A DNA stretch of 64,000 nucleotides from Candidatus Methylomirabilota bacterium (GTDB taxonomy: Bacteria; Methylomirabilota; Methylomirabilia; Rokubacteriales; CSP1-6): NCBI GenBank assembly GCA_036001065.1, contig DASYUQ010000077.1, positions 12,299-76,298 of the forward strand, given 5' to 3'. The notes beneath the pieces were generated by a model that was given only the letters and a program-made list of their open reading frames with translations, was not told the origin of the DNA and searched no databases. The translations under genes were made by a program, and so were the position numbers. Positions 1-18,225 of this stretch are shown here, one piece after another. Positions within the stretch are counted from its first letter, which is position 1, and each line of letters begins with the position of its first letter.

Positions 1-1148
1 GAGCACTGCCAGCACAGGTGGCGCTGCGGGTAGTTCACGGCGCCGCAGTCGGCGCACTTCTGGCCGTAGAGCCGAAGGTTCTGCCGTTCCTCCCGCACCA
101 GCGTCGGGACGCTCGAGAACGAGCGGATGACCTCGGTGTCGACGTGGCGGCGGAATCGCAGGAACTTGCCGTAATGCCCGAGCGCCCGGCCGGCGGCGAG
201 CTGCCCGCCCACGGGCCGCGGGGGGCGGAAGCCAGCGATCGCATCCGTCGCCTCGAAGAGCAACGCCTCCGCCCCGTTGCCGTACGACACCACCAGGATC
301 TGATCGTGAGGCTTCGCCTCCTCCATGACGGAGGCCAGCTCCAGCAGGCAGGAGGCGGCACCCGTGTTGCCGGCCCGCCCGATGACGGGCTCCCCGGGCA
401 CCGCGGCCTCGGGAAACTTCAGCTGGCGGACCAGCGCCGCGTGGGTGCGGGCATCGGGGCCGTAGAGCACGAGCCTGGCGACGTCCTCCCGCTTCCGACC
501 CGTTTTCCGGAGGAGCCCGTCGATGGCCTCGGGGATGTGCTTGTCGAGCCCGTGAGCCTTGATGAACGTCAGATCGGGCAGTGACTGGACGTAGCGCTCG
601 CCATCGTTGCGCCAGAAATCGGTGAACTCGTGGCTGGCCGTGAATGCTCCCTCGAAGGAGGCGATGACGTCGGCGGTCCCGATCAGCGCCGCGCCGGCGC
701 CGTCGCCCACGAGCATCTCCAGCTCGCCGCCGGGCGCGACCGGCCGCATGTCCGCCGCCGCCACCAGCGCCTCGGCCGCCGAGCCCGCCCGCACCGTGTC
801 GAGCGCCAGACGGAGCGCGGTGGTGCCGCAGCGGAGCGATCCCCCGAGATCGGCAGTGAGCACGCCCGCCCCCAGGTCGACGACGCTGGCCAGAAGCGTG
901 GCGCTGGACTTCTCGACGTAGGGCGCGGAGGTCGAGGCGAAGAAGCAGGCGCCGATGCCGGAGACGGCGCGCGCGCCGATGGCGTTGAGGGCCGCCTCGC
1001 AGGCCATGGTAAGGGCGTCCTCGTCGTAGTTGGCCACGGCGCGCCCGCCGCCGCCCCCGCCCCACACCTGCGCGACCGTCTGGCCCGACAGCCGGTAGCG
1101 CGGCACGTAGCCCCCCACGCTCACGAGACCGATCTTCGGATCAGCCAT
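1..1148 (-). CDS. HMG-CoA synthase-family condensing enzyme fused to a C-terminal DUF35 Zn-ribbon/OB-fold domain (5' ATG at 1148, 3' end cut by window start)
   Basis: Minus-strand translation from ATG at 1148 gives MADPKIGLVSVGGYVPRYRLSG...ANYDEDALTMACEAALNAIG...ACFFASTSAPYVEKSSA...LRCGTTALRLA. This matches HMGCS hallmarks (ANxDEDS(I/L)TMA, FATES-like, C-G-(G/T)-T-A-L). The C-terminal part visible before the window edge (YGQKCADCGAVNYPQRHLCWQC) is a DUF35-type C4 Zn ribbon. The gene is not in the ORF track because it runs off the window. It sits 14 bp downstream of the CoA-transferase stop. Confidence 0.6.
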   Translation of the reverse strand, partial: MADPKIGLVSVGGYVPRYRLSGQTVAQVWGGGGGGRAVANYDEDALTMACEAALNAIGARAVSGIGACFFASTSAPYVEKSSATLLASVVDLGAGVLTADLGGSLRCGTTALRLALDTVRAGSAAEALVAAADMRPVAPGGELEMLVGDGAGAALIGTADVIASFEGAFTASHEFTDFWRNDGERYVQSLPDLTFIKAHGLDKHIPEAIDGLLRKTGRKREDVARLVLYGPDARTHAALVRQLKFPEAAVPGEPVIGRAGNTGAASCLLELASVMEEAKPHDQILVVSYGNGAEALLFEATDAIAGFRPPRPVGGQLAAGRALGHYGKFLRFRRHVDTEVIRSFSSVPTLVREERQNLRLYGQKCADCGAVNYPQRHLCWQC

Positions 1149-1162
1149 GGGTGATGTCTCCA

Positions 1163-3040
1163 CTATCCAAGGAAATACCGCCTCGGATCGAAGAGCCGGA
1201 TGAGCCGCAGCTCGTCCGGCGTCGGGGGATCGAAGCGCCGCAGGGCCGGGGCGACCTTCAGCTCCCAGCCGCACGCCTCCCGCGCAGCCCGGACGGCTTC
1301 CGCCTCGGGCGGCCCCGCCAGGACGCCCGTCAGGATCAGCTCGGAGCTCTCGTCGGGCTTCTCGTACACGCCCCGGTCCGACACGACGGTCGTGACGCGC
1401 GTGCCCGGCGCCGTGATGTACGGCGCCTTGTCGACGAAGCGCTCCCGGCTCTGGGCCAGCGTCACGACGACCTCCCGCGCCGACGAGGCGATGTCGTTGG
1501 CTCCGCCCGAGCCCGTGATGTACAGGGTCCCCGGCACGATGGTCGAGTTGATGTTGCCGTGCTTGTCGATCTGCCCCGCCGCCAGCGAGCCGAGGCAGCG
1601 GTTCTCGCTCCCGCCCATGAAGATGCCCATAACGTGGAAGATGTCGGTGAGCATCTTGGACGACGGGAAGTTGCGGAACGAGAAGACGAACGGCTCGGCC
1701 GGGCGCGGCAGATAGCCGACCATCCCCGTCTCGGCCATCAGCTCCACGTCGACGCCGGCGGCCTTCAGCTCGTAGGCGCTGAGCCAGGCGGCCAGGTTCG
1801 AGTTGCCCACGCCGGCCAGGAAGGCGCGATAGCCCCGCGCCCTCACCTTCTCGCCGAGCAGGCGCGCCGCGGCCACCACCATCATCTCCGCTGCGGTGAA
1901 GCCGCCGTCGGCGGGAATGGCGGGCGCGAGCATCTCCAGCTCCCAGACCCAGGCGTCGGTGTGGGCGCGGCCCTTGACCTCCATCAGCCGCTGGTAGCCC
2001 AGCCGGGCGACGTAGGCCCCCTGGTCCGGCACCTCCAGCATCCACTCCTTGATCCAGGCCTCCGCCGTCTCGCGCTTCCGGAAGGCGCGGCGCAGCGTGA
2101 GGATGAAGTCGAGGTCCTCCGCGTATCCCTCCAGCTCGGCGACGTTCATGCCGTACATCCCGGCGGGATGGGCCCCGAACGGCGCCTCCACCACGGCCGC
2201 GACGTACTGTCCCGGCAGTCGCACCAACGGGGCGTGGCGGCGGATGAACTCGGTCGAGACGACCTTCTCGACGCTGACGATGGCGCCCCCGCGGGCGGCC
2301 ATCGCCGCGTAGAAGTTCTCGTTGAGGGGCGCGGCGGCGAGGACGTTGCCGGCGCGGTCGGCGGCCCAGGCGTGAAACAGCGCCACATCCGGCTTGAGCG
2401 AGCGCACGAACCCGACCCTTCGAGCGCCGGCTCCGCCGGCACAACCCTCCGATGGGGAGGTTCGGAGGGGGTCGTGAGGCCCTCTCTGACTAGGGATCTC
2501 GGAGGGGGCCGTAACGTCCGCCCCCTCCGAAAAAAACGGGTCGGGGGCGGCGAGGAAATCGCCATCGCGCGCGTTGTCCTCCTCCATCGAGGAGCCGAGC
2601 AGCGAGCGCGTGGGCATGAAGGGCACGCCCAGCGCGCCCCCGATCAGCCTGAGCGGCATCGTCAGCATCGACCAGTTCTGGACGGCCACCTGGCCGCCGA
2701 GCACGGCGCGGCCGACCAGCGGCTGGGGCGTCGGATAAGGATAGCCCTCGCCGATGAAGGTCGTGACGAGGCGCTCGACGAGGCCGCCCACGACGAACGC
2801 CGTCCAGGGCGAGCCGAACCCGGTCATCGCCAGCGTCCAGCCCGGCCTCCGGCCCCACCACTGGCGGATCACCTCTCGCACCAGCGCGTTCGGGCGGCCG
2901 TGGGCGGCGCCCAGGTAGATGGTCTGGCGCGGCGCGATCAGGCGCCGCACCGCCTCCTCCAGGGTCGTCACCTTGTCCGGCCCTTCGGTGGGCGGCAGCG
3001 CGAGGCGTCGCCCGATCAGCTCCGCGTAGTCCGAGCGCAT
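1163..3040 (-). CDS. Family I CoA-transferase, fused alpha-like + beta-like subunits (GctAB/AtoDA-type), with an about 39-aa in-frame repeat-derived insertion
   Basis: 625-aa ORF. The C-terminal half carries the beta-subunit catalytic-glutamate motif (GGSENRCLGSLAAGQIDKHGNINSTIV). The N-terminal half resembles the alpha subunit. Residues about 168-207 (PFFSEGADVTAPSEIPSQRGPHDPLRTSPSEGCAGGAGARRVG) are encoded by repeat copy A. Confidence 0.65.
   Translation of the reverse strand: MRSDYAELIGRRLALPPTEGPDKVTTLEEAVRRLIAPRQTIYLGAAHGRPNALVREVIRQWWGRRPGWTLAMTGFGSPWTAFVVGGLVERLVTTFIGEGYPYPTPQPLVGRAVLGGQVAVQNWSMLTMPLRLIGGALGVPFMPTRSLLGSSMEEDNARDGDFLAAPDPFFSEGADVTAPSEIPSQRGPHDPLRTSPSEGCAGGAGARRVGFVRSLKPDVALFHAWAADRAGNVLAAAPLNENFYAAMAARGGAIVSVEKVVSTEFIRRHAPLVRLPGQYVAAVVEAPFGAHPAGMYGMNVAELEGYAEDLDFILTLRRAFRKRETAEAWIKEWMLEVPDQGAYVARLGYQRLMEVKGRAHTDAWVWELEMLAPAIPADGGFTAAEMMVVAAARLLGEKVRARGYRAFLAGVGNSNLAAWLSAYELKAAGVDVELMAETGMVGYLPRPAEPFVFSFRNFPSSKMLTDIFHVMGIFMGGSENRCLGSLAAGQIDKHGNINSTIVPGTLYITGSGGANDIASSAREVVVTLAQSRERFVDKAPYITAPGTRVTTVVSDRGVYEKPDESSELILTGVLAGPPEAEAVRAAREACGWELKVAPALRRFDPPTPDELRLIRLFDPRRYFLG
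2420..2537. repeat. GC-rich palindromic repeat element, copy A (forward orientation), inside the CoA-transferase CDS in-frame
   Basis: Sequence: ttcgagcgccggctccgccggc...gatggggaggttcggagggggtcgtgaggccctctctgactagggatctcggagggggccgtaacgtccgccccctccgaaaaaaa. It is near-identical to copy B (32414-32520) and shares 5' and 3' modules with copies C, D, E and F. Internal hairpins: GCCGGCtccGCCGGC and TTCGGAGGGGG...CCCCCTCCGAA. Confidence 0.65.
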
Positions 3041-3046
3041 CTTTCC

Positions 3047-3394
3047 CTAGCGTGGTGAGAAGATGCGGGCCTTGATCCGACCCGGCACCCAGCCGGCCAG
3101 CAGGTGGGCCGCCCGCGCCAGCCGCTCCAGCGACGCGGCGCTCCCCGGCCAGTACTTGAGCAGCAGGGCGCGGTCGACGTAGTTGAGGATCCCGTCGAGG
3201 ATGATCGCCGCCAGCAGGAGATCGTCGAGGTAGCCCAGGAACGGGATGAAGTCGGGGATCAGGTCGATGGGACTGGCCAGGTAGACCGCCGCGGCGGCCA
3301 GGGCGATCTTGGCCGGGCGCGGCAGTACCGGGTCGCCCACGAGCCGGGCGATCAGCCGTACGAGGTCGGGCAGCGCGCGCAGCAGCTCCTTCAC
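3047..3394 (-). CDS. DUF1232 (YkvA-like) small membrane protein
   Basis: 115 aa with the DUF1232 signature PIDLIPDFIPFLGYLDDLLL and hydrophobic segments. Its start ATG overlaps the upstream gene's stop (ATGA). Confidence 0.55.
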   Translation of the reverse strand: MKELLRALPDLVRLIARLVGDPVLPRPAKIALAAAAVYLASPIDLIPDFIPFLGYLDDLLLAAIILDGILNYVDRALLLKYWPGSAASLERLARAAHLLAGWVPGRIKARIFSPR

Positions 3395-5376
3395 TCCAGG
3401 CTCTCCGCCACCAGCTCGCTCACATCTTTGACTTGAAGTCGCTCCTCGGCCCCCTTGACCTTACGGCCCAGGTCGATCATCGCCAGGCAGAAGGGACAGG
3501 CGGTGCCCACCATGGTCGCCTCGGTCTCCAGGGCCTCCTCCACCCGGATGATGTTGACGCGCTTCCGGGACTTCACCTCCATCCACATGTGGCCCCCGCC
3601 CCCGCCGCAGCAGAGCCCGCGTTCGCGGTTGCGCGGCATCTCGATGACCCGGAGACCGGGAAGCGCGCGGGCCACGGCCCGGGGCGCCTCCATGATGCCG
3701 TTGTAGCGTCCGAGATAGCAGGAGTCGTGGAAGGCCAGCGTCGCGTCGAGGGCCTTTTTCGGCTTGATCCGGCCGGCGGCGAGCAGCTCGTTGATGACCA
3801 CCGAGTGGTGGACCACCTCGTAGGTGCCGCCGAACTGGGGGAACTCGTTCTTGATGGTGTTGAAGCAGTGGGGGCAGTGGGTGAGGACCTTCCGGAAGCG
3901 GTACCGGCCCAGCGCCTCGACGTTCTCCTGCTGCACGGTCTGGTACAGGTACTCCTCGCCCAGCCGGCGCGCGACCTCGCCGTGGCAGCGCTCCTCCGGC
4001 ATCACCGCGAAGGACACGCCGGCCGCTTTGAGGATCCTCACCACGGACCGCGCGATCGACTGGTTGCGCTTGTCGTAGGAGGCGGAGCAGCCGACCCAGT
4101 AGAGGTACTCGACCTCTTTGCCCGGCTCCATGAGCGGCACGTCGAGCCCGTGCGCCCAGGCCAGCCGCTCGCTGGCCGGCAGCCCCCAGGGGTTGCCCGC
4201 CCGCTGGATGTTCTGCAGCGATTGCGGCGCCGTCGACGGGAGAGCGCCCTCCGACAGCGCCAGATACCGGCGGAGGTCGATGATGGTGTCGACGATGTCG
4301 ATGAAGGCCGGGCACTCCTGCACGCAGGCCATGCAGGTCGTGCACGCCCACAGCTCCTCGGCCTTGATGAGTTGGCCGTGGATCGGTCCGGGCAGCTCGC
4401 CGTGCAGGTGCCGCTTGAGCTTCACGATGATCTGCTTGGGGGATAGCGCCGTGCCCGCCATGTAGGCGGGGCAGACCGCCTGACAGCGCCCGCACTCCAC
4501 GCACGCGTCGAAGTCTAGCCGTCGCTTCCACGAGAACTCCTCGAGCTTCGAGATGCCGAACGACTCGGCCTCCTCGATGTTCTCGATCTTGGGGATCTCG
4601 CCGCGGGGGCCGAGCTTCGAGAAGAAGATGTTCAGCGGCGTGGTCAGGAGGTGGACGAAGTAGGAGTAGGGGATGACGGCGACGAAGGCCAGGGAGATCG
4701 CCGCGTGGAACAGCCAGGTCCCCAGATGGAGCGCACGCAACGCGCCCTCCGACATCCCGGCCGCCAGCATCGTCCGCCCCAGCGCCCAGCCCACCGGCGA
4801 CCACGGCGCCCACGCCGGCTCGACGACGGCCAGGCGGCAGGCCTCCATGATGAAGCCCGTGAGGTTGATCACGAAGAGCAGGGCCAGCACGCCGGCGAAG
4901 CGCGCCGTGGGATCGAGGCGATCCGGGCGCGCGACGAAGCGCCGCCCCACCGCCATGCCGAGCCCGATGACGAAGAAGAGCCCGAAGAGGTCGAGCACCG
5001 TCTCGTAGAAGAGGTAGAACGGCCCCTGGAGCAGCTTCACGTCGAAGAGCGGCAGCGTGATGTCCCAGTCGATGGTGGCCAGCACGGTGCCCATGAAAAG
5101 GGCGAGGAAGCCCCAGAATATGATCGCGTGCATGACCCCCGGATAGGCCTGGGAGAGTGTGCGGGCCTGGCCGAGCGCGTGCACCAGCACGAGCTTGACG
5201 CGTTCGGGAACCCGGTCGAATCGGTCCTGGGGGCGGCCGGCGCGCCACAGCCGGACGCGCTGCCACATACCGTAGACGAAGACGGCGACGGCCGCGAGGG
5301 CGCCGGCGTAGAGCGCGATCTGAGCCCAGGCCGGAACATTCCAGAAGGTGTCGCGGAACGGAATCTGTCCGGTCAT
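3391..5376 (-). CDS. Membrane-anchored iron-sulfur oxidoreductase: NarI/DsrM-like polytopic N-terminal domain + two 4Fe-4S ferredoxin motifs + two CCG (HdrD/DsrK/GlpC-like) cysteine-rich domains
   Basis: True start is ATG at 5376 (MTGQIPFRDTFWN...), overlapping the meaB stop as ATGA. The track ORF 3391..5925 carries a spurious 183-aa Arg/Gly-rich N-terminal extension. About 5-6 predicted TM helices are followed by CVECGRCQAVCP and CTTCMACVQECP, then the CCG motifs WVGCSASYD and LCCGGGGGHMW...CPFC. The architecture matches DsrMK/HmeCD-type and the membrane FeS oxidoreductases (DUF224) that accompany EtfAB in syntrophs. Confidence 0.65.
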   Translation of the reverse strand: MTGQIPFRDTFWNVPAWAQIALYAGALAAVAVFVYGMWQRVRLWRAGRPQDRFDRVPERVKLVLVHALGQARTLSQAYPGVMHAIIFWGFLALFMGTVLATIDWDITLPLFDVKLLQGPFYLFYETVLDLFGLFFVIGLGMAVGRRFVARPDRLDPTARFAGVLALLFVINLTGFIMEACRLAVVEPAWAPWSPVGWALGRTMLAAGMSEGALRALHLGTWLFHAAISLAFVAVIPYSYFVHLLTTPLNIFFSKLGPRGEIPKIENIEEAESFGISKLEEFSWKRRLDFDACVECGRCQAVCPAYMAGTALSPKQIIVKLKRHLHGELPGPIHGQLIKAEELWACTTCMACVQECPAFIDIVDTIIDLRRYLALSEGALPSTAPQSLQNIQRAGNPWGLPASERLAWAHGLDVPLMEPGKEVEYLYWVGCSASYDKRNQSIARSVVRILKAAGVSFAVMPEERCHGEVARRLGEEYLYQTVQQENVEALGRYRFRKVLTHCPHCFNTIKNEFPQFGGTYEVVHHSVVINELLAAGRIKPKKALDATLAFHDSCYLGRYNGIMEAPRAVARALPGLRVIEMPRNRERGLCCGGGGGHMWMEVKSRKRVNIIRVEEALETEATMVGTACPFCLAMIDLGRKVKGAEERLQVKDVSELVAESLE

Positions 5377-6368
5377 GAGTGTCCCAACGATAGCACGGCG
5401 AGAACGACCTCCGCGGCGGCGTACGGGTCGAGCTGCCCGTCGGCGACCCGATCGAACGTCTGGGCCAGGTCGCCCGAGCGCAGCATCCGCTCCACGCTGT
5501 CCCTGAACTCCTCCACCAGGAGACTCTTGAACTCGTCGCGCCGCCGGGCCCGGCGCCGTTCGGCCAGCGCGCCCGCTCCCTCCAGAGCTGCGCGGTGGCC
5601 GACGACCGTGTCGAGCAGCTCGGCCATCCCGCCGTTGTTCTGGGCCTCCGTCGCCAGCACGGGGATCTCCCAGTCGACGTCGCGCGGCGCGGTGGGGCTG
5701 GTGGAGGCCAGGTGGGCGGCGAACTTCAGCTCCGCCATCAGGGCGGGGGCGCCGGTGCGGTCGGCCTTGTTGACGACGAAGACGTCGGCCGCCTCCATGA
5801 GGCCCGCCTTCATCGTCTGGATGGCGTCGCCCGACTCCGGCACCAGGATGACCACCGTCGTGTCGGCGAGCTTCATGATGTCGAGCTCGGTCTGGCCCAC
5901 GCCCACGGTCTCGATGAGGATCCACGGAAACCCGAACGCGGCCAGGAGCTTGATGACGTCGCCGGTGGCGCGGGCCAGCCCGCCGAAGGCGCCGCGCGTC
6001 GCCATGCTCCGGATGAAGACGCCGGGGTCGAGCGCGTGGGCCTGCATGCGGATGCGATCGCCCAGCACCGCGCCCCCCGTGAACGGACTCGACGGATCCA
6101 CGGCGACGACGCCGACGGTCTGCTCGCGCGCGCGGAGCAGCGCGGTCAGCCGGTCCACGACTGTCGATTTACCGGCGCCGGGTGGCCCCGTCACGCCCAC
6201 GACGTAGGCGCCCTGCGCCCGCGGATGGATCGCGCGCATGATGGCGGGCACCGCCTCCCTGCGGTTCTCGACGTGGGTGATGAGACGCGCCAGCGCCAGC
6301 CGGTCGCCGGCCAGCATGCGCTCGACGAGCGCGTCGATTTTCTGCGGGCGGGTCTTCGGATCAGGCAT
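5373..6368 (-). CDS. meaB: MeaB/ArgK-family G-protein (B12-dependent acyl-CoA mutase metallochaperone)
   Basis: 331 aa with P-loop GVTGPPGAGKST, VETVGVGQ and NKAD. This is typical MeaB. It is the first gene of a 5-gene minus-strand operon. Confidence 0.8.
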   Translation of the reverse strand: MPDPKTRPQKIDALVERMLAGDRLALARLITHVENRREAVPAIMRAIHPRAQGAYVVGVTGPPGAGKSTVVDRLTALLRAREQTVGVVAVDPSSPFTGGAVLGDRIRMQAHALDPGVFIRSMATRGAFGGLARATGDVIKLLAAFGFPWILIETVGVGQTELDIMKLADTTVVILVPESGDAIQTMKAGLMEAADVFVVNKADRTGAPALMAELKFAAHLASTSPTAPRDVDWEIPVLATEAQNNGGMAELLDTVVGHRAALEGAGALAERRRARRRDEFKSLLVEEFRDSVERMLRSGDLAQTFDRVADGQLDPYAAAEVVLAVLSLGHS

Positions 6369-6384
6369 CGGCCGACGGGTCCCC

Positions 6385-6410
6385 GGAATTGTAGCACTCT
6401 GCTAGTATGG
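6385..6410. promoter_or_regulatory. AT-rich divergent promoter island: extended -10 (TGcTACAAT) on the minus strand for meaB, and TAGTAT -10-like on the plus strand for the small membrane ORF
   Basis: The plus strand reads ggaattgtagcactctgctagtatgg. This is the only AT-rich patch in a GC-rich region. Minus-strand gTGcTACAAT lies about 20 nt upstream of the meaB ATG (6368). No convincing -35 is present. Confidence 0.3.
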
Positions 6411-6417
6411 CCGGCTG

Positions 6418-6789
6418 ATGCGGGGCCTCCCCATGCTCGTCGCGCTCGCCGCCGCCGAACAGCCCCTCACGCTGCAGCGGGTATGGCTCGACCGCCTGGC
6501 GATCATCATTCCGGCGACCATGGCGACGCGGTGGCTGCTCCTCGCCGACCTCGCCTGCCTGATCGCGCTGGGGCTGGGGATGCGCCGGCCGCTGCTCGGC
6601 GTGGTCCTCACCCTTGGCGGAGGATTCCTTGTCCTCAACGGCCTCGGCATGGCGCTCACGGATTTCTACCTGGGACTCGCCCTCTTTCACTTCGTCGTCG
6701 GCGTCACCGTGGTCCTGTTCGCGCGCCGCGCGCGCTGGCTGGGCGCGGCGGCGCTGGGACTGGCGCTCGTCCTCGGCGCCCTCACCTGA
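6418..6789 (+). CDS. Small hydrophobic membrane protein (hypothetical)
   Basis: 123 aa with about 4 predicted TM helices (LVALAAA..., LLLADLACLIALGL, VVLTLGGGFLVLNGLGMAL, LALFHFVVGVTVVLF). Plus-strand codon usage is GC3-rich. It is convergent with the cytochrome gene, and an alternative start is at 6433. Confidence 0.4.
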   Translation: MRGLPMLVALAAAEQPLTLQRVWLDRLAIIIPATMATRWLLLADLACLIALGLGMRRPLLGVVLTLGGGFLVLNGLGMALTDFYLGLALFHFVVGVTVVLFARRARWLGAAALGLALVLGALT

Positions 6790-6797
6790 TGACGGCC

Positions 6798-7355
6798 TTA
6801 CATCTCCTTGTGGCACTCCAGGCAGATGGGGACGACGAGCGTCCTGGAGATAAACCGGTTGGTGGCGTCGCTGTCCGTCGTGTGCGTCGTGTGACAGCGC
6901 ACGCAAGCCACCCTCACCGTGTCGTGCTCGCGGATGGCATGGTAGGAGGTGCCTCCCCGGCCTTCGGTCGCCTCCTCGGCCTCGAACTCCGCACCGGGGT
7001 CGACGGCCCGCGCCGGGCTCCCCGCCGCCTCGCCGTCGGCGCGCGACACGCGCAGAATCGGCGTGTGGCACTGGCGGCAGTCGGCGTCGCGCAGCGGCAG
7101 CCGCATGTGCGTCGGCTCCTGATAGGCGCCGGCCAGGAACTTCAGCGTGTCGAACCCCGCCACGGCCCAGACCGTCAAGCGCATCCCGGAATCGGCGCCG
7201 CCGTGACAGGCGATGCACCCGACCGCCGCGTCCTGGCGGTGATGCTGCCCGGCCAGATCGCCAGGCATGGCCGCGGTCAGACCCCCGAACTTCTCATCGT
7301 GCAGGTGGCAGGAGACGCAGAAGCGGTTGTCGCGCTCCTTGGCGGCGAGCGCCAC
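6798..7355 (-). CDS. NapC/NirT/NrfH-family membrane-anchored multiheme cytochrome c (5 CxxCH); likely N-terminal extension to about 7436
   Basis: The ORF from GTG 7355 contains CVSCH, CIACH, CRQCH, CVRCH and CLECH. In-frame upstream codons (no stop back to 7445) encode a TM anchor, IARSFGRSLALWAAGGAGALLLGSLFLVALAAKERDNRFCVSCH. This is the NrfH/NapC arrangement (TM helix, then first heme). The only start-like codon there is ATC at 7436, 8 nt after a GAGAGGAGGA Shine-Dalgarno. Confidence 0.6.
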   Translation of the reverse strand: MALAAKERDNRFCVSCHLHDEKFGGLTAAMPGDLAGQHHRQDAAVGCIACHGGADSGMRLTVWAVAGFDTLKFLAGAYQEPTHMRLPLRDADCRQCHTPILRVSRADGEAAGSPARAVDPGAEFEAEEATEGRGGTSYHAIREHDTVRVACVRCHTTHTTDSDATNRFISRTLVVPICLECHKEM

Positions 7356-7461: not shown

Positions 7462-8268
7462 CTAGCGAACGGTCACCATCACCGGCTTGGCGAACATAAT
7501 GTGCCCCGACGGACCACCGCCACCACCTCGCGGCAGCACCGCGCCGGTCGGCGTCGTCACGGTGCCCACGGACGAGGCCTTCTCGGAGCCGTAGTGGAAG
7601 GCGGCGGTGATCGAGTACGTACCGGGCTCCTGCGGGGCCTTCACGGCCCACACGACCTTGCCCTCGGCCGGCTTCCGGGCGGCCAGATCAGTCTTCTGAT
7701 CGAAGATGACGACGCTATTGAGGTTCTTCTTGAGTCCGGCCGCACGGCTATCCACCCACTTGGTCTGCTCCTGGCCATCGCCGCCCCACGCCTTTGGAGG
7801 ACCGACGATCAGCCAACCGTCGCCCTGGACCGGTCGCGCCTGGAAGCGGAGGTCGGTGTCGACCAGGAACACCCCGACGGCCCCGTGGCCCCCCTTGACC
7901 GTCACCGTGATCTGGGTCTCCTGACCCGGTCGGAGGCTGGTCGGGGCGCTGAGGTTCACCGAGGCGAGCTCGTCCATCAGCTTGACGTCGGCCAGCAGCT
8001 TCTGGCGGTCGGCGGGCTGCATCTGCTGATAGGGGCCCGCGCCATCCTCGATGGCCTTGTAGTGCTTGTTCTCCTTGACCTGGCTGTTGGCGAACGCCTC
8101 CGGCTCGTTCCGTAACTGGTCCTTGGAGACGGACGAGTGGCAGGCGGCACACGTCGGGGCGAGATCGGTAACGTTGCGCAGCGGCCCGCCATTATAGGCG
8201 GCAGCCGGCGGCACGCCGAAGGGAAGCAGCATTGCTGCGAGGCCGAGAACGCTGGCAAATCGTTTCAT
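7462..8268 (-). CDS. Secreted monoheme c-type cytochrome-domain protein
   Basis: True start ATG at 8268 (MKRFASVLGLAAMLLPFGVPPAAAYNGG...) with a GGGGGA RBS. It has a signal peptide, a single CAACH heme motif about 20 aa after the cleavage site, and an about 220-aa C-terminal domain. The upstream 149 aa of track ORF 7462..8715 is an Arg/Ser-rich artefact. Confidence 0.55.
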   Translation of the reverse strand: MKRFASVLGLAAMLLPFGVPPAAAYNGGPLRNVTDLAPTCAACHSSVSKDQLRNEPEAFANSQVKENKHYKAIEDGAGPYQQMQPADRQKLLADVKLMDELASVNLSAPTSLRPGQETQITVTVKGGHGAVGVFLVDTDLRFQARPVQGDGWLIVGPPKAWGGDGQEQTKWVDSRAAGLKKNLNSVVIFDQKTDLAARKPAEGKVVWAVKAPQEPGTYSITAAFHYGSEKASSVGTVTTPTGAVLPRGGGGGPSGHIMFAKPVMVTVR

Positions 8269-11099: not shown

Positions 11100-11196
11100 A
11101 TTCCTCGGAGGGGGGCTTCGCCCCCCTTCCGAAACCTCCCCCCAGGATCCATTGCGCGGGCTAAGCCCGCGCTCGAGCCGGCCGCCCCCAGAAACT
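11100..11196. repeat. GC-rich palindromic repeat element, diverged copy F (reverse orientation), between convergent genes
   Basis: cggaggggggcttcgccccccttccgaaacctccccccaggatccattgcgcgggctaagcccgcgctcgag parallels copies D and E (cggagggggcctcggcggccccctccgaggcctcccccagga..gatggcgccggcggagccggcgctcgaa). The terminal hairpin is kept by compensatory changes (GCGCGGGCtaaGCCCGCGC versus GCGCCGGCggaGCCGGCGC). Confidence 0.5.
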
Positions 11197-13017
11197 TCAG
11201 GCGGCTTCCCACAGCCCTTCGGCGACGCCGGCGCTCTTGTAGGCGGCTCGGATGCGATCGAGGTTCTGCGTGAAGAGGAGCCCGATCTTCGCGAACGGCT
11301 CGAAGACAGGACCCTGGCCCTCGATCAGCGGGAAGCTGACATTGGGGAGCTTGCCCCACTGGGCGCGCAGCGCGATGTTCACGGTCGCCAGGCGCGCGTA
11401 GAACTCCTCGCGCTCCTTCGCCGCGCGCTTGACGATCGGCGTGATCAGGCAGTCGATGGTCTGGCGCGCCCGCGCCGCCGCGCCCTCGACGGCCGCCTCC
11501 GCCAGCGGCACCACCGTCACGCCCAGCTCGCCCAGGAACCGCTGCAGGAGCCGACCGACCGATTCCTGGAGCAGCACCTCGGGCAGCCCGACCGTCTTCA
11601 GCTCGCGGTGGCCGATCTGCGCAGCCTCCGCGTACAGCTGGTCGCGCAGCCACTGCACGTAGGCGCGGTTCTCCTCGTCCTTCCACCACTGCTTGATCAT
11701 CTTCTTGCCCCAGTAACGGATGGCCACGTAGTAGAGGTCCCGCTTCCAGAGCTTCTTGGCGATCCCCCGCCAGGAGTAGAACTTGGCCATCGCATCGATC
11801 GCCCCCGTCTGGAGCTCGTAGGGCGACATCCGCCGCGGCTGGTGGACCGTGTGGTGGCCGTCGTAAAAGGACCAGTTCCGGTTGATGACGTACTTGTCGC
11901 CCTTGGCGTAGAGGGTGTCCCAGTCGGGCGAGCCCGGGATCGGCGTGAGGATCATGAACTGCACGGAGTCGATGTCGTGCTTCAGCGCGAAGTCGGCGGT
12001 CGCGTCGATCGTCTCGAGGTCGTCCTCGTCCGAGCCGACCACGAACATGCCGTGGATCCGGATTTGGTGGGCGTGGAAGCGCTCGATCGACCGCTCGATC
12101 TTGGCCAGATCCTGCTTCTTCTGGAAGAGCTTGAGCGTGCGGGGATTGATGGACTCGAACCCCACGTACACATTGAAGCAGTTCGAGTCGCGCATGAGCT
12201 CGAGAAGCTCGGGATCGTCCACCGTCTCGGTGCGCACCTGGGCGCCCCACTGGGGCGTGAGCCCGCGCTCGATCATCCCCCGCAAGAGCTCCTTCACGCG
12301 CTTCTTGTTGGCGGTGAAGATGTCGTCGGCGAAGAAGGTGTAGAGGTTGCCCTTGTGCAGCGTCAGCTCCTCCAGCACCCGCGCGACCGAGTGGGTGCGG
12401 AAGGCGTGACCGTACATCCCCGGCACCGAGCAGAAGGTGCAGGAGAAGGGGCAGCCGCGGGAGGTGGCGATGGAGATGACCCCGCCCGGCTTCCAGCCGG
12501 TGATGAGCTGGTAATCGGGGATCGGGTTCACGTCCAGGTTGGGGATCTTCGGGCGCTCGGGGTTGTGCACGGTCCGGCCGTCCGCCTGGTACGAGAGATT
12601 CTGGATCTTCTCGAACCCCTCGCCCCGCTGGATGGCGTCCACCAGCTCCTGGAAGGCGGCCTCCCCCTCGCCCCGGACGACGAAGTCTCCGTGGGCGAGC
12701 CCTTCGTCGGGCATGAAGCTCGTGTGGGTGCCGCCCAGCACGACGATCCCGCCCGCCTGCCTCACCTGGTCGGCGAGGCGATACGACTGGGGGGCCGTGG
12801 AGGTGATGGCGGAGATGCCCACCAGATCGGCCGCGAGCACCTCCGCCATGTCCACGGGTTGGATGTCCTCGATGTAGACGCGGACGTCGTATCCCTTGCT
12901 CCGCATGATCGTGCCCAAGAGCACGGAGCCGAGCCGCGGAATACACACCCGGGTGTACACGTGGAGGTGCGTGGACTTCGGCTCGACAAACACGAGCTTC
13001 TTGAGCGCTCGCTTCAT
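11197..13017 (-). CDS. Cobalamin (B12)-binding domain radical SAM enzyme (class B) with about 180-aa C-terminal extension
   Basis: Start ATG 13017 (MKRALKKLVFVEP...) with RBS GGGGAG. N-terminal B12-binding fold (DLVGISAITS...IVVLGGTHTSF) and CPFSCTFCSVPG (Cx3Cx2C), then a Trp-rich C-terminal extension reminiscent of DUF4070. Confidence 0.75.
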   Translation of the reverse strand: MKRALKKLVFVEPKSTHLHVYTRVCIPRLGSVLLGTIMRSKGYDVRVYIEDIQPVDMAEVLAADLVGISAITSTAPQSYRLADQVRQAGGIVVLGGTHTSFMPDEGLAHGDFVVRGEGEAAFQELVDAIQRGEGFEKIQNLSYQADGRTVHNPERPKIPNLDVNPIPDYQLITGWKPGGVISIATSRGCPFSCTFCSVPGMYGHAFRTHSVARVLEELTLHKGNLYTFFADDIFTANKKRVKELLRGMIERGLTPQWGAQVRTETVDDPELLELMRDSNCFNVYVGFESINPRTLKLFQKKQDLAKIERSIERFHAHQIRIHGMFVVGSDEDDLETIDATADFALKHDIDSVQFMILTPIPGSPDWDTLYAKGDKYVINRNWSFYDGHHTVHQPRRMSPYELQTGAIDAMAKFYSWRGIAKKLWKRDLYYVAIRYWGKKMIKQWWKDEENRAYVQWLRDQLYAEAAQIGHRELKTVGLPEVLLQESVGRLLQRFLGELGVTVVPLAEAAVEGAAARARQTIDCLITPIVKRAAKEREEFYARLATVNIALRAQWGKLPNVSFPLIEGQGPVFEPFAKIGLLFTQNLDRIRAAYKSAGVAEGLWEAA

Positions 13018-13334
13018 GAGTGGTTTCTCCCCGGTTGAAGAGGCCAGAGAATTTCGCAGATGCGCCAACGCTATCACCCGCCTCCGCGGCTTGTCAACGT
13101 ACGCCTGCCCCCTTCTCCCCTAAATATGGTGTTCACGACCCGTCCGGAACCCCCGTATGTTGGATTTGGGGCTTGACAGGATTTCCGGGCCGGCTCTAGC
13201 ATGCCGGTGACGCGCGTCATGCCGCAAGGGAGGTGAGCCGCGCCCTCGAGGCGACCGGCCCTCTCGGCCTTGCGTTCCGGCAGGGCCGCACCCTCTGATG
13301 ATACTGAGTGGGGCGACCCCCCTCAGACCCTGAG

Positions 13335-13392
13335 GATTCTGGCCTGCAGACTCTCCCCCGCAGATTCTCCCCCCGCGAATTCTGCCCGCAAT
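13335..13392. repeat. Four tandem imperfect 14-15 bp direct repeats (GAYTCT-SSCCC-GCA)
   Basis: GATTCTGGCCTGCA / GACTCTCCCCCGCA / GATTCTCCCCCCGC / GAATTCTGCCCGCA. They lie directly 3' of the nrdR stop and about 320 bp upstream of the radical SAM start. A CCTCAGaccCTGAGG palindrome at 13321-13335 abuts them. Confidence 0.4.
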
Positions 13393-13403
13393 CGACGGTC
13401 GAG

Positions 13404-13916
<513 letters not shown>

Positions 13917-13929
13917 GGGAGCCCTCCCC

Positions 13930-15177
13930 TCACTTCACGCGGTCCGGGTAGAGGGGAAACCGACCGGTCAGCTCCTGCACCTCGGCGCGCACCGCCGCCT
14001 CCACCGCCGAGGAGCCGAGCTGGCTCAACACGCGGTCGGTGAGCTCGGCGATCCGCTCCATCTCGGGCTCCCGCATGCCCCGCGTCGTCAGCGCCGGCGT
14101 CCCCAGCCGGATGCCGCTGGTCACCATGGGGCTGCGGGTATCGAAGGGCACGGTGTTCTTGTTCACGGTGATCCAGGCGCGGTCCAGCGCCTCCTGGGCG
14201 TCTTTGCCCGTGATGTCGCGGCTGGTGAGGTCGACCAGGATGAGATGCGTGTCGGTGCCGCCGCTCACCAGGCGATAGCCGCGAGCCAGCAGCGCGGCGG
14301 CGAGCGCCTTGGCATTGCGGACGATCTGCTGCTGGTAGGCGCGCCACTCCGGCGTGAGGGCCTCCTTGAACGCCACCGCCTTGGCGGCGATCACGTGCAT
14401 GAGCGGACCGCCCTGCACTCCCGGCATCACGACTTTGTCCAGCGTCGCCGCGTCCTTGGCCTGGCACAGGATCATGCCGCCCCGAGGGCCGCGCAGGGTC
14501 TTGTGGGTGGTGGTGGTGACGAAGTCGGCGAGGCCGACCGGCGACGGATGCAGCCCCGCCGCGACCAACCCGGCCGGATGGGCGATGTCGGCCATCAGGA
14601 CGGCACCGACTTCGCGCGCGATCTCTGCGAAGGGGCGGAAGTCGATGGCGCGTGGAAAGGCCGAGCCCCCGGCGATGATCAGCTTGGGGTGATGCTGCCG
14701 GGCCAGGTCGCGCACCTGGTCGAGGTCGATCCGCTCGGTGTCCTTGCGGACGCCGTAGGGCACGATCTTGTAGAGCTTCCCCGAGTAGTTCACGGGGCTC
14801 CCGGCCGTCAGGTGGCCGCCGTGCGAGAGGTTGGGCCCCAGGACCGTGTCGCCGGGTTTGAGGACAGCGAAGTAGACGGCCATGTTGGCCTGGGCGCCCG
14901 AGTGAGGCTGGACGTTGGCGTGCTCGGCACCGAACAGCTCCCGGGCGCGGGCGATCGCCAGGTCCTCGGCGATATCGACCACCTCGCAGCCCCCGTAGTA
15001 CCGGCGCCCCGGATAGCCCTCGGCGTACTTGTTGGTCATGACCGAACCGAGCGCCTCCAGCACCGCCTCGGAGACGAAGTTCTCGGAGGCGATCAGCTCG
15101 AGGTTCCGGTTCTGCCGCTGCGCTTCCTCGCGCAGCGTCTTGGCGATGTCGGGGTCGACGTCAGTGAGCCGGGGCAT
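13930..15177 (-). CDS. glyA: Serine hydroxymethyltransferase
   Basis: 415 aa, with the PLP-Lys motif [15 protein letters not shown] and [26 protein letters not shown]. Confidence 0.9.
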
Positions 15178-17369: not shown

Positions 17370-18164
17370 TCAGTACACGCCGCCCGGGAACGTCGAGACC
17401 TCCGGGCGGCGACCGGGCACACGGTACATCTTCACGCCGGAGCCGCCCGCGCCGAACGGCGTGCCGAGGATGCCGTCGTGGATGGCCCAGCTGCGGCCCC
17501 GGATCGAGCCGTCGAACCCCCGTCGCCGGAACGGCGTCGAGTCGTCGAGGCACGCGTGCAGGGCGCCGCCGGGCTGAAAGCCGGCGTGGATGGCGTCCAT
17601 GCGGTCGCGGCCGATGAAGTAGTCGCAGCCGTGGCGCTCGTAGAGGAGCGCCGAGTGATAGAAGAGCGGTTCGACGAGATAGAACTCGCGTCCCAGCAGC
17701 CGGCAGAACGCGTCCATGCACTCCAGCACGCGGCCGATCATGCGGAGGCCCCGGCGAACCTGGCCGGGCGCGAGGCCCGCGGCGAGGGCCCGCGCCTCCT
17801 CACCGAGGTTGCGGCAGGCTGTACCGAGCAGGGTGTCGTGCCCGTGGTCGTCCCGATCGACCCCGTAGCGGGGCGTCTCCGGATCGTTGATCTGAACCAG
17901 CGACAGCTCCGGCGCCCCGAACGCCGACATGCCCATGTCGAGGAGGAGAACCGGGTCGCGATCGTGCTCGCGCGCCCAGAGCTCGATACGCACCCAGGGC
18001 TTCTCGTCCCCGGCGGTGATCCGCACCAGGCGCTCGCCGAGCGGGCCGTGCAGCTGCTGCCGGTCGACCCCGTAGACCACGAGCAGCTCCTCGGGAACGA
18101 GTCGTAGATAGAGCCGGTCGCGGACGTCGAGCGGCAGAGCGTTCAGCGCGACGATGGGGTCCAT
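17370..18164 (-). CDS. Conserved hypothetical protein (no recognisable domain)
   Basis: 264 aa with GC3-rich codon usage, packed between mobA and thiI. There are no diagnostic motifs. Confidence 0.4.
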   Translation of the reverse strand: MDPIVALNALPLDVRDRLYLRLVPEELLVVYGVDRQQLHGPLGERLVRITAGDEKPWVRIELWAREHDRDPVLLLDMGMSAFGAPELSLVQINDPETPRYGVDRDDHGHDTLLGTACRNLGEEARALAAGLAPGQVRRGLRMIGRVLECMDAFCRLLGREFYLVEPLFYHSALLYERHGCDYFIGRDRMDAIHAGFQPGGALHACLDDSTPFRRRGFDGSIRGRSWAIHDGILGTPFGAGGSGVKMYRVPGRRPEVSTFPGGVY

Positions 18165-18225
18165 TACAGGCTCGCCTCGGCCGCGGGGGCCCCAGCCCCC
18201 GGCCGTCCTGCGGCTCGCACGGCCA

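Follow-up and report, generated by a model that had tools for sequence, protein, structure and literature searches.

Which function belongs to a protein of 661 amino acids that is encoded in a soil Methylomirabilota (Rokubacteria) genome and annotated in databases only as "heterodisulfide reductase-related"? Its open reading frame lies at 3391..5376 on the minus strand of the window, meaning the whole 64-kb stretch of DNA that was analyzed. It ends with a TGA stop codon at 3391-3393 and has a plausible ATG start at 5376-5374; this ATG and the TGA that closes the meaB reading frame upstream share bases (ATGA). A longer reading of 844 amino acids up to 5925 was rejected as the gene since it is the same open frame extended upstream across meaB (5373..6368, in another frame). 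A protein of a Methylomirabilota MAG has the same sequence as the 661-residue product (100% identity). We consider it probable that it is a single-subunit membrane-bound electron-transfer flavoprotein (ETF):quinone oxidoreductase of the EMO/EtfD family, i.e., a fusion of a NarI-like cytochrome b with an HdrC-like and an HdrB-like part. The gene is placed in this family by its reading frame and translation, the overlap of its ATG with the meaB stop, and sequence and Foldseek matches to PDB entry 9OJN.

This entry, EtfD of M. smegmatis, is the best PDB sequence match (9OJN_A; E 7.8e-107, 361 bits, query residues 42-660), and the next one is HdrC with an E of 1e-7. The AlphaFold2 model of the 661-residue protein (pLDDT 93.6, pTM 0.90) also has 9OJN as its top Foldseek match in the PDB, aligned over the whole chain (TM 0.87, 733 columns, E 3.5e-40); the matches that follow, LutA, HdrB, and NarI, cover one domain apiece. 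In the alignment, every ligand residue named for 9OJN has an identical counterpart in the query. Among the curated NCBIfam models, none reaches its cutoff: HdrC models score 29-52 bits against cutoffs of 160-350, and the best model is TfrB with 151.9 bits against 385. TfrB (thiol:fumarate reductase subunit B) is a soluble protein with an N-terminal [2Fe-2S] SdhB-like part. It was rejected as a candidate since its match spans query residues 262-658 only and the N terminus of the query is a membrane domain.

This cytochrome-b-like domain comprises residues 1 to about 255 (4612..5376, minus strand) and five transmembrane (TM) helices, as judged by hydropathy and charge, DSSP, and Foldseek matches to NarI. 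Five hydrophobic segments are recognized at about residues 15-37, 80-102, 122-144, 160-184, and 220-243, and the high-confidence AlphaFold model analyzed by DSSP has the same five helices. Of the five to six helices expected in the preliminary description of this DNA, the lower number thus stands and a sixth helix does not. The loops I-II and III-IV are rich in Lys and Arg, which points to an N-out, C-in topology; hence, the Fe-S domains are predicted to be cytoplasmic. The NarI/DsrM-like character formerly ascribed to the domain is not borne out by the Pfam NarI model (PF02665, Nitrate_red_gam), which reaches 16.4 bits and stays below its gathering score of 22.9. A precomputed PF02665 match is carried by a few close homologues, and the match of the QmoC model to the membrane domain is weak. 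By contrast, Foldseek aligns NarI chains with a probability of 1.00 and a target-normalised TM of about 0.5, and these matches, together with the full-length match to 9OJN, support the predicted NarI-like fold of the domain.

NarI binds two bis-His hemes by two His on TM II and two on TM V. TM II of the query contains one His only, so that its distal site would not be bis-His, unlike that of NarI. By alignment to 9OJN, His83 (codon 5128..5130, minus strand) is the predicted axial ligand of the proximal heme b and His242 (4651..4653, minus strand) the predicted second one. They correspond to the ligands of this heme in M. smegmatis, His78 and His241 (PMC13083937), and in S. aciditrophicus, His87 and His251 (bioRxiv 10.64898/2026.08.18.745454, Kosian et al.). 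The distal-heme histidine is His224 (4705..4707, minus strand), whose counterpart His233 ligates heme bD1 in S. aciditrophicus (bioRxiv 10.64898/2026.08.18.745454); the equivalent M. smegmatis His223 is present in 9OJN, and the distal heme site is unoccupied there. His224 and His242 both lie on TM V, 18 residues apart as in the two relatives. Conservation was assessed among 150 diverse family representatives with 36-56% identity to the query. Herein, His83 and His242 are each His in 150/150 and His224 in 146/150. The heme-b ligands suggested earlier hence hold for His83 of HAIIFWGF and for the second His of HLGTWLFHAAI, His224, but not for His217, which is semi-conserved (79/150); the other axial ligand of the proximal heme, His242, had been overlooked. 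The heme-propionate residues R137 and R306 of 9OJN align with R146 and R297 of the query, and its menaquinone-site residues F85 and F230 with F90 and F231. Position 239 is Lys in 116/150 representatives and Tyr in the query. Two acidic residues, D103 and D105, are located at the periplasmic end of TM II.

The membrane domain is followed by an HdrC-like ferredoxin domain (residues about 283-375; 4252..4530, minus strand) that is matched by Pfam Fer4_10, Fer4_8, and Fer4_9 (E about 1e-10) and by HdrC chains of the PDB. It contains two CX2CX2CX3CP motifs, one formed by C292, C295, C298, and C302 and one by C345, C348, C351, and C355, as anticipated from the two ferredoxin-type clusters noted before. 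Their eight Cys, suited to two cubane [4Fe-4S] clusters, are each kept in 150/150 representatives and correspond to those of the M. smegmatis clusters D3 and D4: C301, 304, 307, and 422 of 9OJN align with C292, 295, 298, and 355, and C311, 412, 415, and 418 with C302, 345, 348, and 351.

The HdrB-like non-cubane-cluster domain (residues about 420-640; 3457..4119, minus strand) consists of two CCG domains, which are identified by two stretches of Pfam CCG (PF02754; E 4.5e-30, 104 bits against a cutoff of 20.6), by alignment, and by Foldseek matches to HdrB and LutA. With the N-terminal TM domain, these stretches agree with the previous view of a membrane-integral HdrD-like CCG protein. The proximal non-cubane site is made up of C553, C589, C590, C627, and C630 plus H503, equivalent to C637, 672, 673, 709, and 712 plus H583 of M. 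smegmatis. H503 is invariant (150/150); in EMO, this residue blocks the substrate (CoM-binding) site of HdrB (bioRxiv 10.64898/2026.08.18.745454). The distal site has C430, C464, C501, and C504, equivalent to M. smegmatis C503, 538, 581, and 584. Ligands of the HdrB-like domain are conserved in 130-150 of the 150 representatives, and EtfD/EMO ligand positions as a whole are 87-100% conserved, with the heme and proximal-cluster ligands being invariant and the distal cluster site variable. This variability is located at the pair Cys464-His465 (3982..3987, minus strand; from the alignment), which is Cys-Cys in HdrB and Cys-Thr in M. smegmatis EtfD. Residue 465 is T in 59, C in 54, N in 15, S in 14, H in 4, and D in 2 of the 150 representatives. 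His465 is invariant in 23 close Methylomirabilota-type sequences and occurs among 80 homologous loci in L007, L012, and L014 only; neither solved EMO/EtfD structure has His at the equivalent position. With His465, the distal cluster may be a [3Fe-4S] or a His-ligated [4Fe-4S] cluster.

The two family members with solved structures are M. smegmatis EtfD (9OJN, PMC13083937) and S. aciditrophicus EMO (bioRxiv 10.64898/2026.08.18.745454). EtfD of M. smegmatis and M. tuberculosis (MSMEG_0690-type, Rv0338c; PMC8593149, PMC13083937) shares with the query, at an identity of about 30%, the layout of five TM helices, a pair of cubane [4Fe-4S] clusters, and a pair of CCG domains in a single chain. EtfD and the query agree in the kind of every ligand residue, including His503 (M. 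smegmatis H583) at the proximal non-cubane cluster, and in the phenylalanines of the menaquinone site, and neither has the second Cys of the first CCG motif. Like the query gene, etfD of M. tuberculosis is unlinked to etfBA. The query is shorter (661 versus 1042 amino acids) and has neither the disordered C-terminal extension of ~30 kDa nor the loop insertions of EtfD. Tyr239 replaces the common Lys, and phylum and operon context differ. Since His465 stands in place of Thr539, the linear [3Fe-4S] cluster cannot be assumed in the query. S. aciditrophicus EMO (SYN_02638), an ETF:methylmenaquinone oxidoreductase (bioRxiv 10.64898/2026.08.18.745454, PMC8805022), is similar in size (706 versus 661 amino acids) and without a C-terminal tail. 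Its three domains are arranged as in the query, its three heme-related histidines are equally spaced, and a His likewise blocks the Hdr substrate site. A proxy from the Syntrophaceae (L054), which adjoins etfBA and carries a CPHG motif, is 37% identical to the query over residues 8-659. The query has CPHC (Cys504) instead of the CPHG of S. aciditrophicus, hence a [4Fe-5S] cluster is not expected. Unlike S. aciditrophicus EMO, it lacks the CC pair and does not adjoin etfAB.

The family comprises 2444 clusters at 50% identity (E <= 1e-30). Its gene neighborhoods were surveyed in 80 homologous loci with 8-kb flanks, spanning Chloroflexota, Actinomycetota, Bacillota, Thermodesulfobacteriota, Syntrophaceae, Bdellovibrionota, Myxococcota, and others. 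In 17/80 loci, etfB and/or etfA lie inside the flank. The etf genes adjoin the EMO gene in 15 of these 17, 13 of them on the same strand; in L074, they adjoin it on the opposite strand, and in L010, etf is located upstream at the contig end and known from a 39-codon EtfA match. In L040 and L021, etf is farther away, at about 0.9 kb and about 7 kb, respectively. At least one ETF or β-oxidation gene (ETF, acyl-CoA dehydrogenase, acyl-CoA synthetase, enoyl-CoA hydratase, thiolase, or 3-hydroxyacyl-CoA dehydrogenase) is found at most 8 kb from the EMO gene in 36/80 loci, among which are the closest relatives outside the phylum (42-49% identity; L023, L014, L026, L011, L009, and L010). Architecture, all ligand residues, fold, and this family-wide linkage to etfAB and β-oxidation are established here. 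The resemblance to the ETF:menaquinone Fe-S oxidoreductases of syntrophs, proposed in the preliminary description, is upheld by the sequence, the conserved ligands, the fold prediction, and the gene neighborhood across the family alike.

Experiments have demonstrated the EMO/EtfD function for M. tuberculosis and M. smegmatis (PMC8593149, PMC13083937) as well as for S. aciditrophicus (bioRxiv 10.64898/2026.08.18.745454). From homology, we infer cofactor content, ETF partner, quinone type and site, heme number, and electron direction. By analogy with the two solved members, reduced ETF, loaded by acyl-CoA dehydrogenases, would dock on the cytoplasmic HdrB-like domain, where the two non-cubane Fe-S clusters would serve as the entry point for single electrons. 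The two cubane [4Fe-4S] clusters would relay them to the proximal heme b (His83/His242), from which the membrane quinone would be reduced. Most likely, the reaction runs forward from ETF to quinone and would feed β-oxidation electrons into respiration in an aerobic or nitrate-respiring soil lineage; β-oxidation genes have been reported in Rokubacteriales MAGs (PMC8780371). The same predicted role, transfer of ETF electrons to the quinone pool, is held by the mitochondrial and proteobacterial ETF-QO (ETFDH). This is a monotopic FAD/[4Fe-4S] protein without homology to the query, in which Pfam detects none of its domains; EtfD, too, is not homologous to human ETFDH (PMC8593149).

The gene is part of an apparent operon on the minus strand. 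Its first gene encodes a meaB-type G3E GTPase of 331 amino acids (5373..6368; TIGR00750 338 bits versus 240.75, Pfam MeaB E 5e-88), 50 bp upstream of which a divergent plus-strand reading frame starts. Downstream of the EMO gene follows a small DUF1232 membrane protein of 115 amino acids (3047..3394; PF06803, E 4.5e-14), whose GTG start overlaps the EMO stop (GTGA). The meaB/EMO and EMO/DUF1232 overlaps are 4 nt each, and the three genes are predicted to be translationally coupled. A fused family-I CoA-transferase of 625 amino acids (1163..3040; Pfam CoA_trans in two stretches, E 1.3e-26) starts 6 nt past the DUF1232 stop. After a gap of 14 nt, it is followed by a fusion of an HMG-CoA-synthase-like (thiolase-superfamily) part with DUF35 (ChsH2 zinc-ribbon/OB), whose gene is cut off at the window start (1..1148; Pfam OB_ChsH2_C, zf-ChsH2, and ACP_syn_III_C). 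This last gene was placed via gene 14229-15638 of L001 and scores 217.8 bits with NF003274 (cutoff 244).

DUF1232 directly follows EMO in each Methylomirabilota locus with sequence there. The CoA-transferase is kept downstream in L012 (71% identity) and L008 (52%) and absent in L002, L004, and L005; the downstream sequence of L006 is too short to judge. MeaB is missing in one relative with 83% EMO identity (L004 and L005). The whole order from MeaB through EMO, DUF1232, and CoA-transferase to the HMG-CoA-synthase-like/DUF35 fusion persists down to 68% EMO identity in L008, which additionally has a family-III CoA-transferase. Outside Methylomirabilota, MeaB adjoins the EMO gene in 0/77 loci, with weak MeaB matches at 3-6 kb in two (L070 and L082). 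The former argument that the placement next to meaB and CoA enzymes speaks for acyl-CoA coupling is therefore weak: MeaB and CoA-transferases adjoin EMO only within Methylomirabilota, and the 64-kb window holds neither etfAB nor acyl-CoA dehydrogenase genes. Several observations count against the assignment itself, namely, the operon partners (MeaB, DUF1232, and two CoA-thioester enzymes), which are not classical ETF/β-oxidation genes, the uncommon Cys-His distal pair, Tyr239, the NCBIfam cutoffs that no model reaches, and the missing etfAB and acyl-CoA dehydrogenase genes of the window.

Other readings assign a different energetic role or partner to the same scaffold. It is unlikely that the query is a syntroph-type variant with a distal heme or twin heme on His224, a quinone site near the periplasmic face, and transfer coupled to the membrane potential, i.e., a pmf-consuming reverse loop or, in reverse, quinol-driven enoyl-CoA reduction. 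The conserved His224, the S. aciditrophicus-like spacing of His83, His224, and His242, and the acidic D103 and D105 would fit such a variant. So would Thr97 (His83+14), at the position of S. aciditrophicus Ala101 and of a Ser in the HdrE model that faces heme bD2; the hydroxyl of Thr97 could approach a heme. However, the three histidines are also kept in EtfD of M. smegmatis, where the distal heme is lacking, and hence do not discriminate between the variants. Moreover, the query keeps Phe90 and Phe231, which line the menaquinone site proposed for EtfD in the middle of the membrane, and it is not obvious why a respiring soil bacterium with nearby c-type cytochromes should need an uphill step driven by the pmf; since the organism is not a syntroph, a reverse loop is improbable. 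Quite improbable, too, is a non-ETF donor in Methylomirabilota that is linked to the protein's own operon of MeaB, CoA-transferases, and HMG-CoA-synthase-like/DUF35 protein. The 4-nt overlaps and the 6-nt and 14-nt gaps indicate one transcription/translation unit, its arrangement is retained as far as L008, etfAB is not nearby, and the atypical Cys-His pair is situated at the distal, ETF-facing cluster site. Yet the operon partners include no redox enzyme, and MeaB (L004/L005) and CoA-transferase (L002, L004, and L005) can be absent. The obviously unrelated tsaB and rimI are equally kept in the gene order of close relatives, so that the synteny may be merely inherited. At position 465, homologues encoded next to ETF have N, C, S, or T, hence this residue does not define the redox partner. 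In a joint and rather unlikely reading, the Methylomirabilota EMO represents a fourth distal-cluster variant with His465 as a ligand, and its coupling to MeaB and DUF1232 is functionally meaningful. His465 would then act as the ligand for which Hdr has a Cys and which is absent from the mycobacterial and Syntrophus enzymes, whose distal clusters are a linear [3Fe-4S] (PMC13083937) and a [4Fe-5S] cluster (bioRxiv 10.64898/2026.08.18.745454), respectively. The coupling could reflect GTPase-assisted maturation or gating, or a non-ETF donor tied to CoA-thioester metabolism; the alternative is inherited gene order only.

Two further readings are very improbable. A catalytic Hdr/DsrK-type thiol-disulfide reductase (quinol:heterodisulfide or DsrC-type, like HdrDE, DsrMK, and HmeCD) is suggested by the public annotation and by the modules in common with HdrDE (Methanosarcina) and HdrBC: a NarI-like anchor (HdrE), an HdrC-like ferredoxin, and an HdrB-like CCG part, which are homologous as seen from Foldseek matches to HdrB and phmmer matches to HdrC and HdrB. 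In the query, unlike in HdrDE/HdrBC, they are fused in one chain. A close relation to DsrK, to which the earlier account likened the protein, or to HmcF or TmcB is contradicted by profile scores far under the cutoffs for DsrK (48.8 bits versus 400), HmcF (57.7 versus 750), TmcB (76.5 versus 735), and HdrB (TIGR03288; 23.6 versus 345), and the bit score of EtfD is roughly ten times that of any Hdr chain. In addition, the CCG part has nine Cys plus His465 and His503 against ten Cys in HdrB, and the family-invariant His503 fills the Hdr CoM-binding position; the predicted role is hence electron transfer rather than disulfide catalysis. Equally hard to sustain is a transmembrane conduit from the cytoplasmic Fe-S clusters to periplasmic c-type cytochromes encoded just upstream. 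The distal histidine is present, and each of the Methylomirabilota loci examined has c-type cytochrome genes upstream. However, their types are not conserved (cytochrome c plus cytochrome c' in L002 to L006, L008, and L012, a pentaheme protein in the window), cytochrome c is absent from the twenty most recurrent annotated neighbor clusters of the 80 diverse loci, and the divergent reading frame between the cytochrome genes and meaB puts the former outside the operon.

Small peculiarities of the query are its rare Cys-His pair at the variable distal site and the predicted meaB-EMO-DUF1232 coupling. The ETF:quinone oxidoreductase assignment moves a protein labeled only "heterodisulfide reductase-related" into the EMO/EtfD family, whose function and structure were established between 2021 and 2026 and which the survey reveals as large and uniform. 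The query is an ordinary, well-conserved member, which confirms the existing picture and opens no new question. For uncultured soil Rokubacteria/Methylomirabilota, this placement would define how electrons of acyl-CoA oxidation reach the respiratory quinone pool.

The gene at 3391-5376 (-) codes for a 661-aa protein of the EMO/EtfD family of membrane ETF:quinone Fe-S oxidoreductases. Its minus-strand open frame is closed by a TGA at 3391-3393, and the start ATG at 5376 shares the four nucleotides ATGA with the stop of the preceding meaB gene. In a mechanical ORF listing, the frame runs on to 5925 (844 aa); this longer reading was rejected because it overlaps the well-supported meaB gene (5373-6368) in another frame. 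A protein called on MAG contigs from Methylomirabilota has exactly the sequence of the 661-aa product (100% identity), and the same length is found in ~120 homologues among the matches listed, at 82-99% identity. Therefore, the extent of 3391-5376 given in the preliminary description is correct. The DNA has a GC content of ~70%, and the organism belongs to the Methylomirabilota/Rokubacteriales.

The protein consists of a membrane domain followed by Fe-S domains. Five transmembrane segments are recognized by hydropathy, spanning residues 15-37, 80-102, 122-144, 160-184, and 220-243. Lysine and arginine are concentrated in the loops I-II (nine residues) and III-IV (four), and the remaining loops are acidic or neutral. 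This distribution predicts an N-out, C-in topology, which would place everything after residue ~250 in the cytoplasm. By Pfam, residues 286-358 form a 4Fe-4S dicluster domain, two CCG domains are recognized with E 4.5e-30, and NarI matches residues 130-252 below threshold; the transmembrane helices, the ferredoxin domain, and the two CCG domains noticed beforehand are, thus, all present. None of the NCBIfam equivalogs reaches its cutoff, the top model being TfrB with 152 bits against 385. The models for DsrK, HmcF, TmcB, HdrB, and HdrC all fall far under theirs; the likeness to DsrK and HmeCD drawn earlier is remote.

Among PDB sequences, phmmer returns a single outstanding match, chain A of 9OJN (E 7.8e-107, query residues 42-660), followed by HdrC chains at E ~1e-7. 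The entry is titled "iron-sulfur-binding reductase" and is the cryo-EM structure of Mycobacterium smegmatis EtfD (PMC13083937). The second solved member of the same family is the ETF:methylmenaquinone oxidoreductase EMO of Syntrophus aciditrophicus (biochemistry, PMC8805022; structure, bioRxiv 10.64898/2026.08.18.745454). The syntroph "DUF224 Fe-S oxidoreductase" invoked in the preliminary description is this EMO family, to which the protein belongs. M. smegmatis EtfD carries a disordered C-terminal tail of ~265 residues that the query lacks, whereas S. aciditrophicus EMO, with 706 aa, is similar to it in size. A homologue from a Syntrophaceae MAG (L054) served as proxy for the latter, being adjacent to etfBA and having the CPHG motif and identical ligand spacing; E22, H109, and E187 of S. 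aciditrophicus could not be mapped onto this proxy. The fold leads to the same relative. An AlphaFold2 model built from 27 diverse sequences reached a pLDDT of 93.6 and a pTM of 0.90, compared with a pLDDT of 57 from a shallow alignment of 23 close homologues (82-96% identical). Foldseek against the PDB ranks 9OJN first (E 3.5e-40, query-normalised TM 0.87, 733 aligned columns), followed by LutA and HdrB chains, which match the CCG domains only, and then by NarI chains, which match the membrane domain only.

Ligand correspondences were derived from the residue-level phmmer alignment to 9OJN and the ligand lists of PMC13083937. The proximal heme b ligands H78 and H241 of M. smegmatis correspond to H83 and H242 of the query, the heme-propionate residues R137 and R306 to R146 and R297, and the putative menaquinone site F85 and F230 to F90 and F231. 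The distal histidine (H223 in M. smegmatis, H233 in S. aciditrophicus) is H224. Hence, H83, H242, and H224 of the five-segment membrane domain align with heme-related histidines of the solved homologues, as had been proposed for H83 and H224. Of the two cubane clusters, D4 (C301, 304, 307, 422) is represented by C292, 295, 298, and 355, and D3 (C311, 412, 415, 418) by C302, 345, 348, and 351. The proximal non-cubane cluster D2/FeS3 (C637, 672, 673, 709, 712 and H583) corresponds to C553, 589, 590, 627, 630 and H503, and the distal variable cluster D1/FeS4 (C503, 538, 581, 584) to C430, 464, 501, and 504.

Conservation of these residues was followed among relatives drawn from 1.84 billion cluster representatives, of which 13,737 match at E <= 1e-3 and 2,444 at E <= 1e-30. 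The alignment comprises the best 150 of the 13,737, all full-length and 36-56% identical to the query. H83, H242, H503, and all eight cubane cysteines are present in 150/150 representatives and H224 in 146/150; the FeS3 cysteines are kept in 147-150 and the FeS4 cysteines in 130-144. The query has Tyr239 where 116/150 carry Lys. Thr97, 14 residues past the histidine of TM-II, is the family majority (112/150); the same position in S. aciditrophicus is Ala101, near heme bD2.

Residue 465, the second of the first "CC" motif, is the one visibly variable position, with T in 59 of the 150 representatives, C in 54, N in 15, S in 14, H in 4, and D in 2. The query and all 22 close relatives in alignment A1 have His465. 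In M. smegmatis, the residue at this position sets the type of the distal cluster, where Thr leads to a linear [3Fe-4S] cluster (PMC13083937), and in S. aciditrophicus a Gly in place of the last Cys of CPHC leads to [4Fe-5S] (bioRxiv 10.64898/2026.08.18.745454). Unlike both, the query combines a retained CPHC with a Cys-His pair, so that, judged from these motifs, neither precedent appears directly applicable. The CPHG variant, whose first CCG motif lacks its final Cys, occurs in 13/150 representatives (~9%) and in L054 (2776-4851, Syntrophaceae UBA1062); variability of the distal cluster is therefore widespread and not the oddity of a single species. Homologues adjacent to ETF genes have N, C, S, or T here, and the variable residue, thus, does not define the partner.

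The gene lies second in an apparent minus-strand operon. It is preceded by meaB, a MeaB-type G3E GTPase (TIGR00750, 338 bits; cutoff 240.75), to which the ATGA overlap couples it translationally. Its stop overlaps by the four nucleotides GTGA with a gene for a 115-aa DUF1232 small membrane protein (3047-3394), which is followed after 6 nt by a fused family-I CoA-transferase of 625 aa (1163-3040). The next gene runs past the window start and codes for an HMG-CoA-synthase-like enzyme with a fused DUF35 (ChsH2 zinc-ribbon/OB) domain. A 123-aa hydrophobic ORF (6418-6786, +), for which no family match was found, is divergent from meaB with 50 bp between them; the operon, hence, begins at meaB. Beyond it, 6798-7355 (-) codes for a protein of 185 aa that has five CxxCH motifs and weakly matches NrfB, NrfH, and DmsE-like proteins, and 7465-8268 (-) for an adjoining 268-aa protein that combines a single CxxCH motif with an Ig-like region. 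A link between EMO and these upstream c-type cytochromes was rejected for the window since the divergent ORF separates them from meaB. In relatives, this position is taken by a cytochrome c together with one or two genes for cytochrome c' (and YceI); the cytochrome set has, thus, been swapped.

In other Methylomirabilota loci (L001-L008, L012; genes in L008 and L012 called by GC3 pattern), the most constant neighbor is DUF1232, directly after the EMO gene wherever sequence is available. MeaB lies upstream in L001-L003, L006-L008, and L012, down to 68% EMO identity, and two cytochrome c' genes take its place in L004 and L005. The pair of CoA-transferase and HMGCS-like enzyme accompanies the gene in the window, L001, and L008; L012 has the CoA-transferase only, both are missing in L002, L004, and L005, and the downstream sequence of L006 is too short. 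L008 (68% EMO identity) has an extra family-III CoA-transferase upstream of meaB, and the CoA-enzyme genes of L008 lie at 5654-6934 and 11105-14431. Unrelated genes (tsaB, rimI) are also common to these loci, so that much of the gene order is simply inherited. Among 80 family-wide loci, MeaB adjoins the EMO gene only in Methylomirabilota. The meaB/CoA-transferase context, from which acyl-CoA coupling had been argued, is confined to this phylum and variable even there; as a substrate indicator it is, therefore, weak and was downgraded.

The 80 loci stem from one genome per species; three are Methylomirabilota, and the rest span many phyla at 35-49% identity to the query. Neighbors were clustered, recurrent clusters annotated, and the counts redone by tblastn with seed proteins because the greedy ORF caller makes wrong gene calls in loci of high GC. 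EtfB is found in 16/80 loci, EtfA, acyl-CoA synthetase, and enoyl-CoA hydratase in 14/80 each, acyl-CoA dehydrogenase in 11/80, 3-hydroxyacyl-CoA dehydrogenase in 6/80, and thiolase in 5/80; at least one of these seven types occurs in 36/80. ETF genes lie inside the 8-kb flank in 17/80 loci. They adjoin EMO on the same strand, at ~20-210 bp, in 13 loci, and on the opposite strand in L074; L010 has a short EtfA match upstream, where the contig ends; the ETF genes of L040 begin ~0.9 kb downstream, and EtfB of L021 is ~7 kb upstream.

Housekeeping genes fill the remainder of the window, including those for purine biosynthesis, nusA-infB-truB-ribF-pnp, rpsB-tsf-frr-uppS-cdsA-dxr-rseP-ispG-proS, and argJ/argC. 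No ETF, acyl-CoA dehydrogenase, methylmalonyl-CoA mutase, or isobutyryl-CoA mutase was found within the 64 kb. A B12-binding radical SAM protein of ~606-626 aa (PF02310 and PF04055; 11197-13077, -) recurs at the corresponding position of several Methylomirabilota loci. Across 13400-64000, the confidently called genes are nearly all on the minus strand (pur, nusA-infB-truB-ribF-pnp, the proS-to-rpsB series, argJ-argC, rplM, malic enzyme), and the cumulative GC skew falls steadily. A 304-aa ORF without Pfam family (17373-18284, -), whose codon bias is good (GC3 0.90), is flanked by thiI and a MobA-like nucleotidyltransferase. In the ~1.9 kb at 23938-25831, no gene could be called with confidence; an ORF of 546 aa (24317-25954, +), the longest there, is without a Pfam match and has an antisense-like codon-position pattern, with GC1 (0.87) above GC3 (0.76).

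The full-length match to 9OJN, the architecture, ligands, and fold, and the family-wide guilt-by-association evidence make the protein a member of the EMO/EtfD family and support the ETF-linked interpretation offered earlier. By analogy with the solved homologues, it most probably oxidizes reduced ETF and reduces membrane quinone via four Fe-S clusters and heme b. Herein, the matched cofactor sites would be occupied, with either a single heme, the number in M. smegmatis, or the three of S. aciditrophicus; this genome would supply an ETF partner, and the quinone may bind at F90 and F231, the counterparts of the putative menaquinone site. The family is already known and recently well characterized, and the query is a new member of it. 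The forward direction of electron flow, from ETF to quinone, is favored because beta-oxidation genes are reported for the Rokubacteriales lineage (PMC8780371), a respiring soil bacterium.
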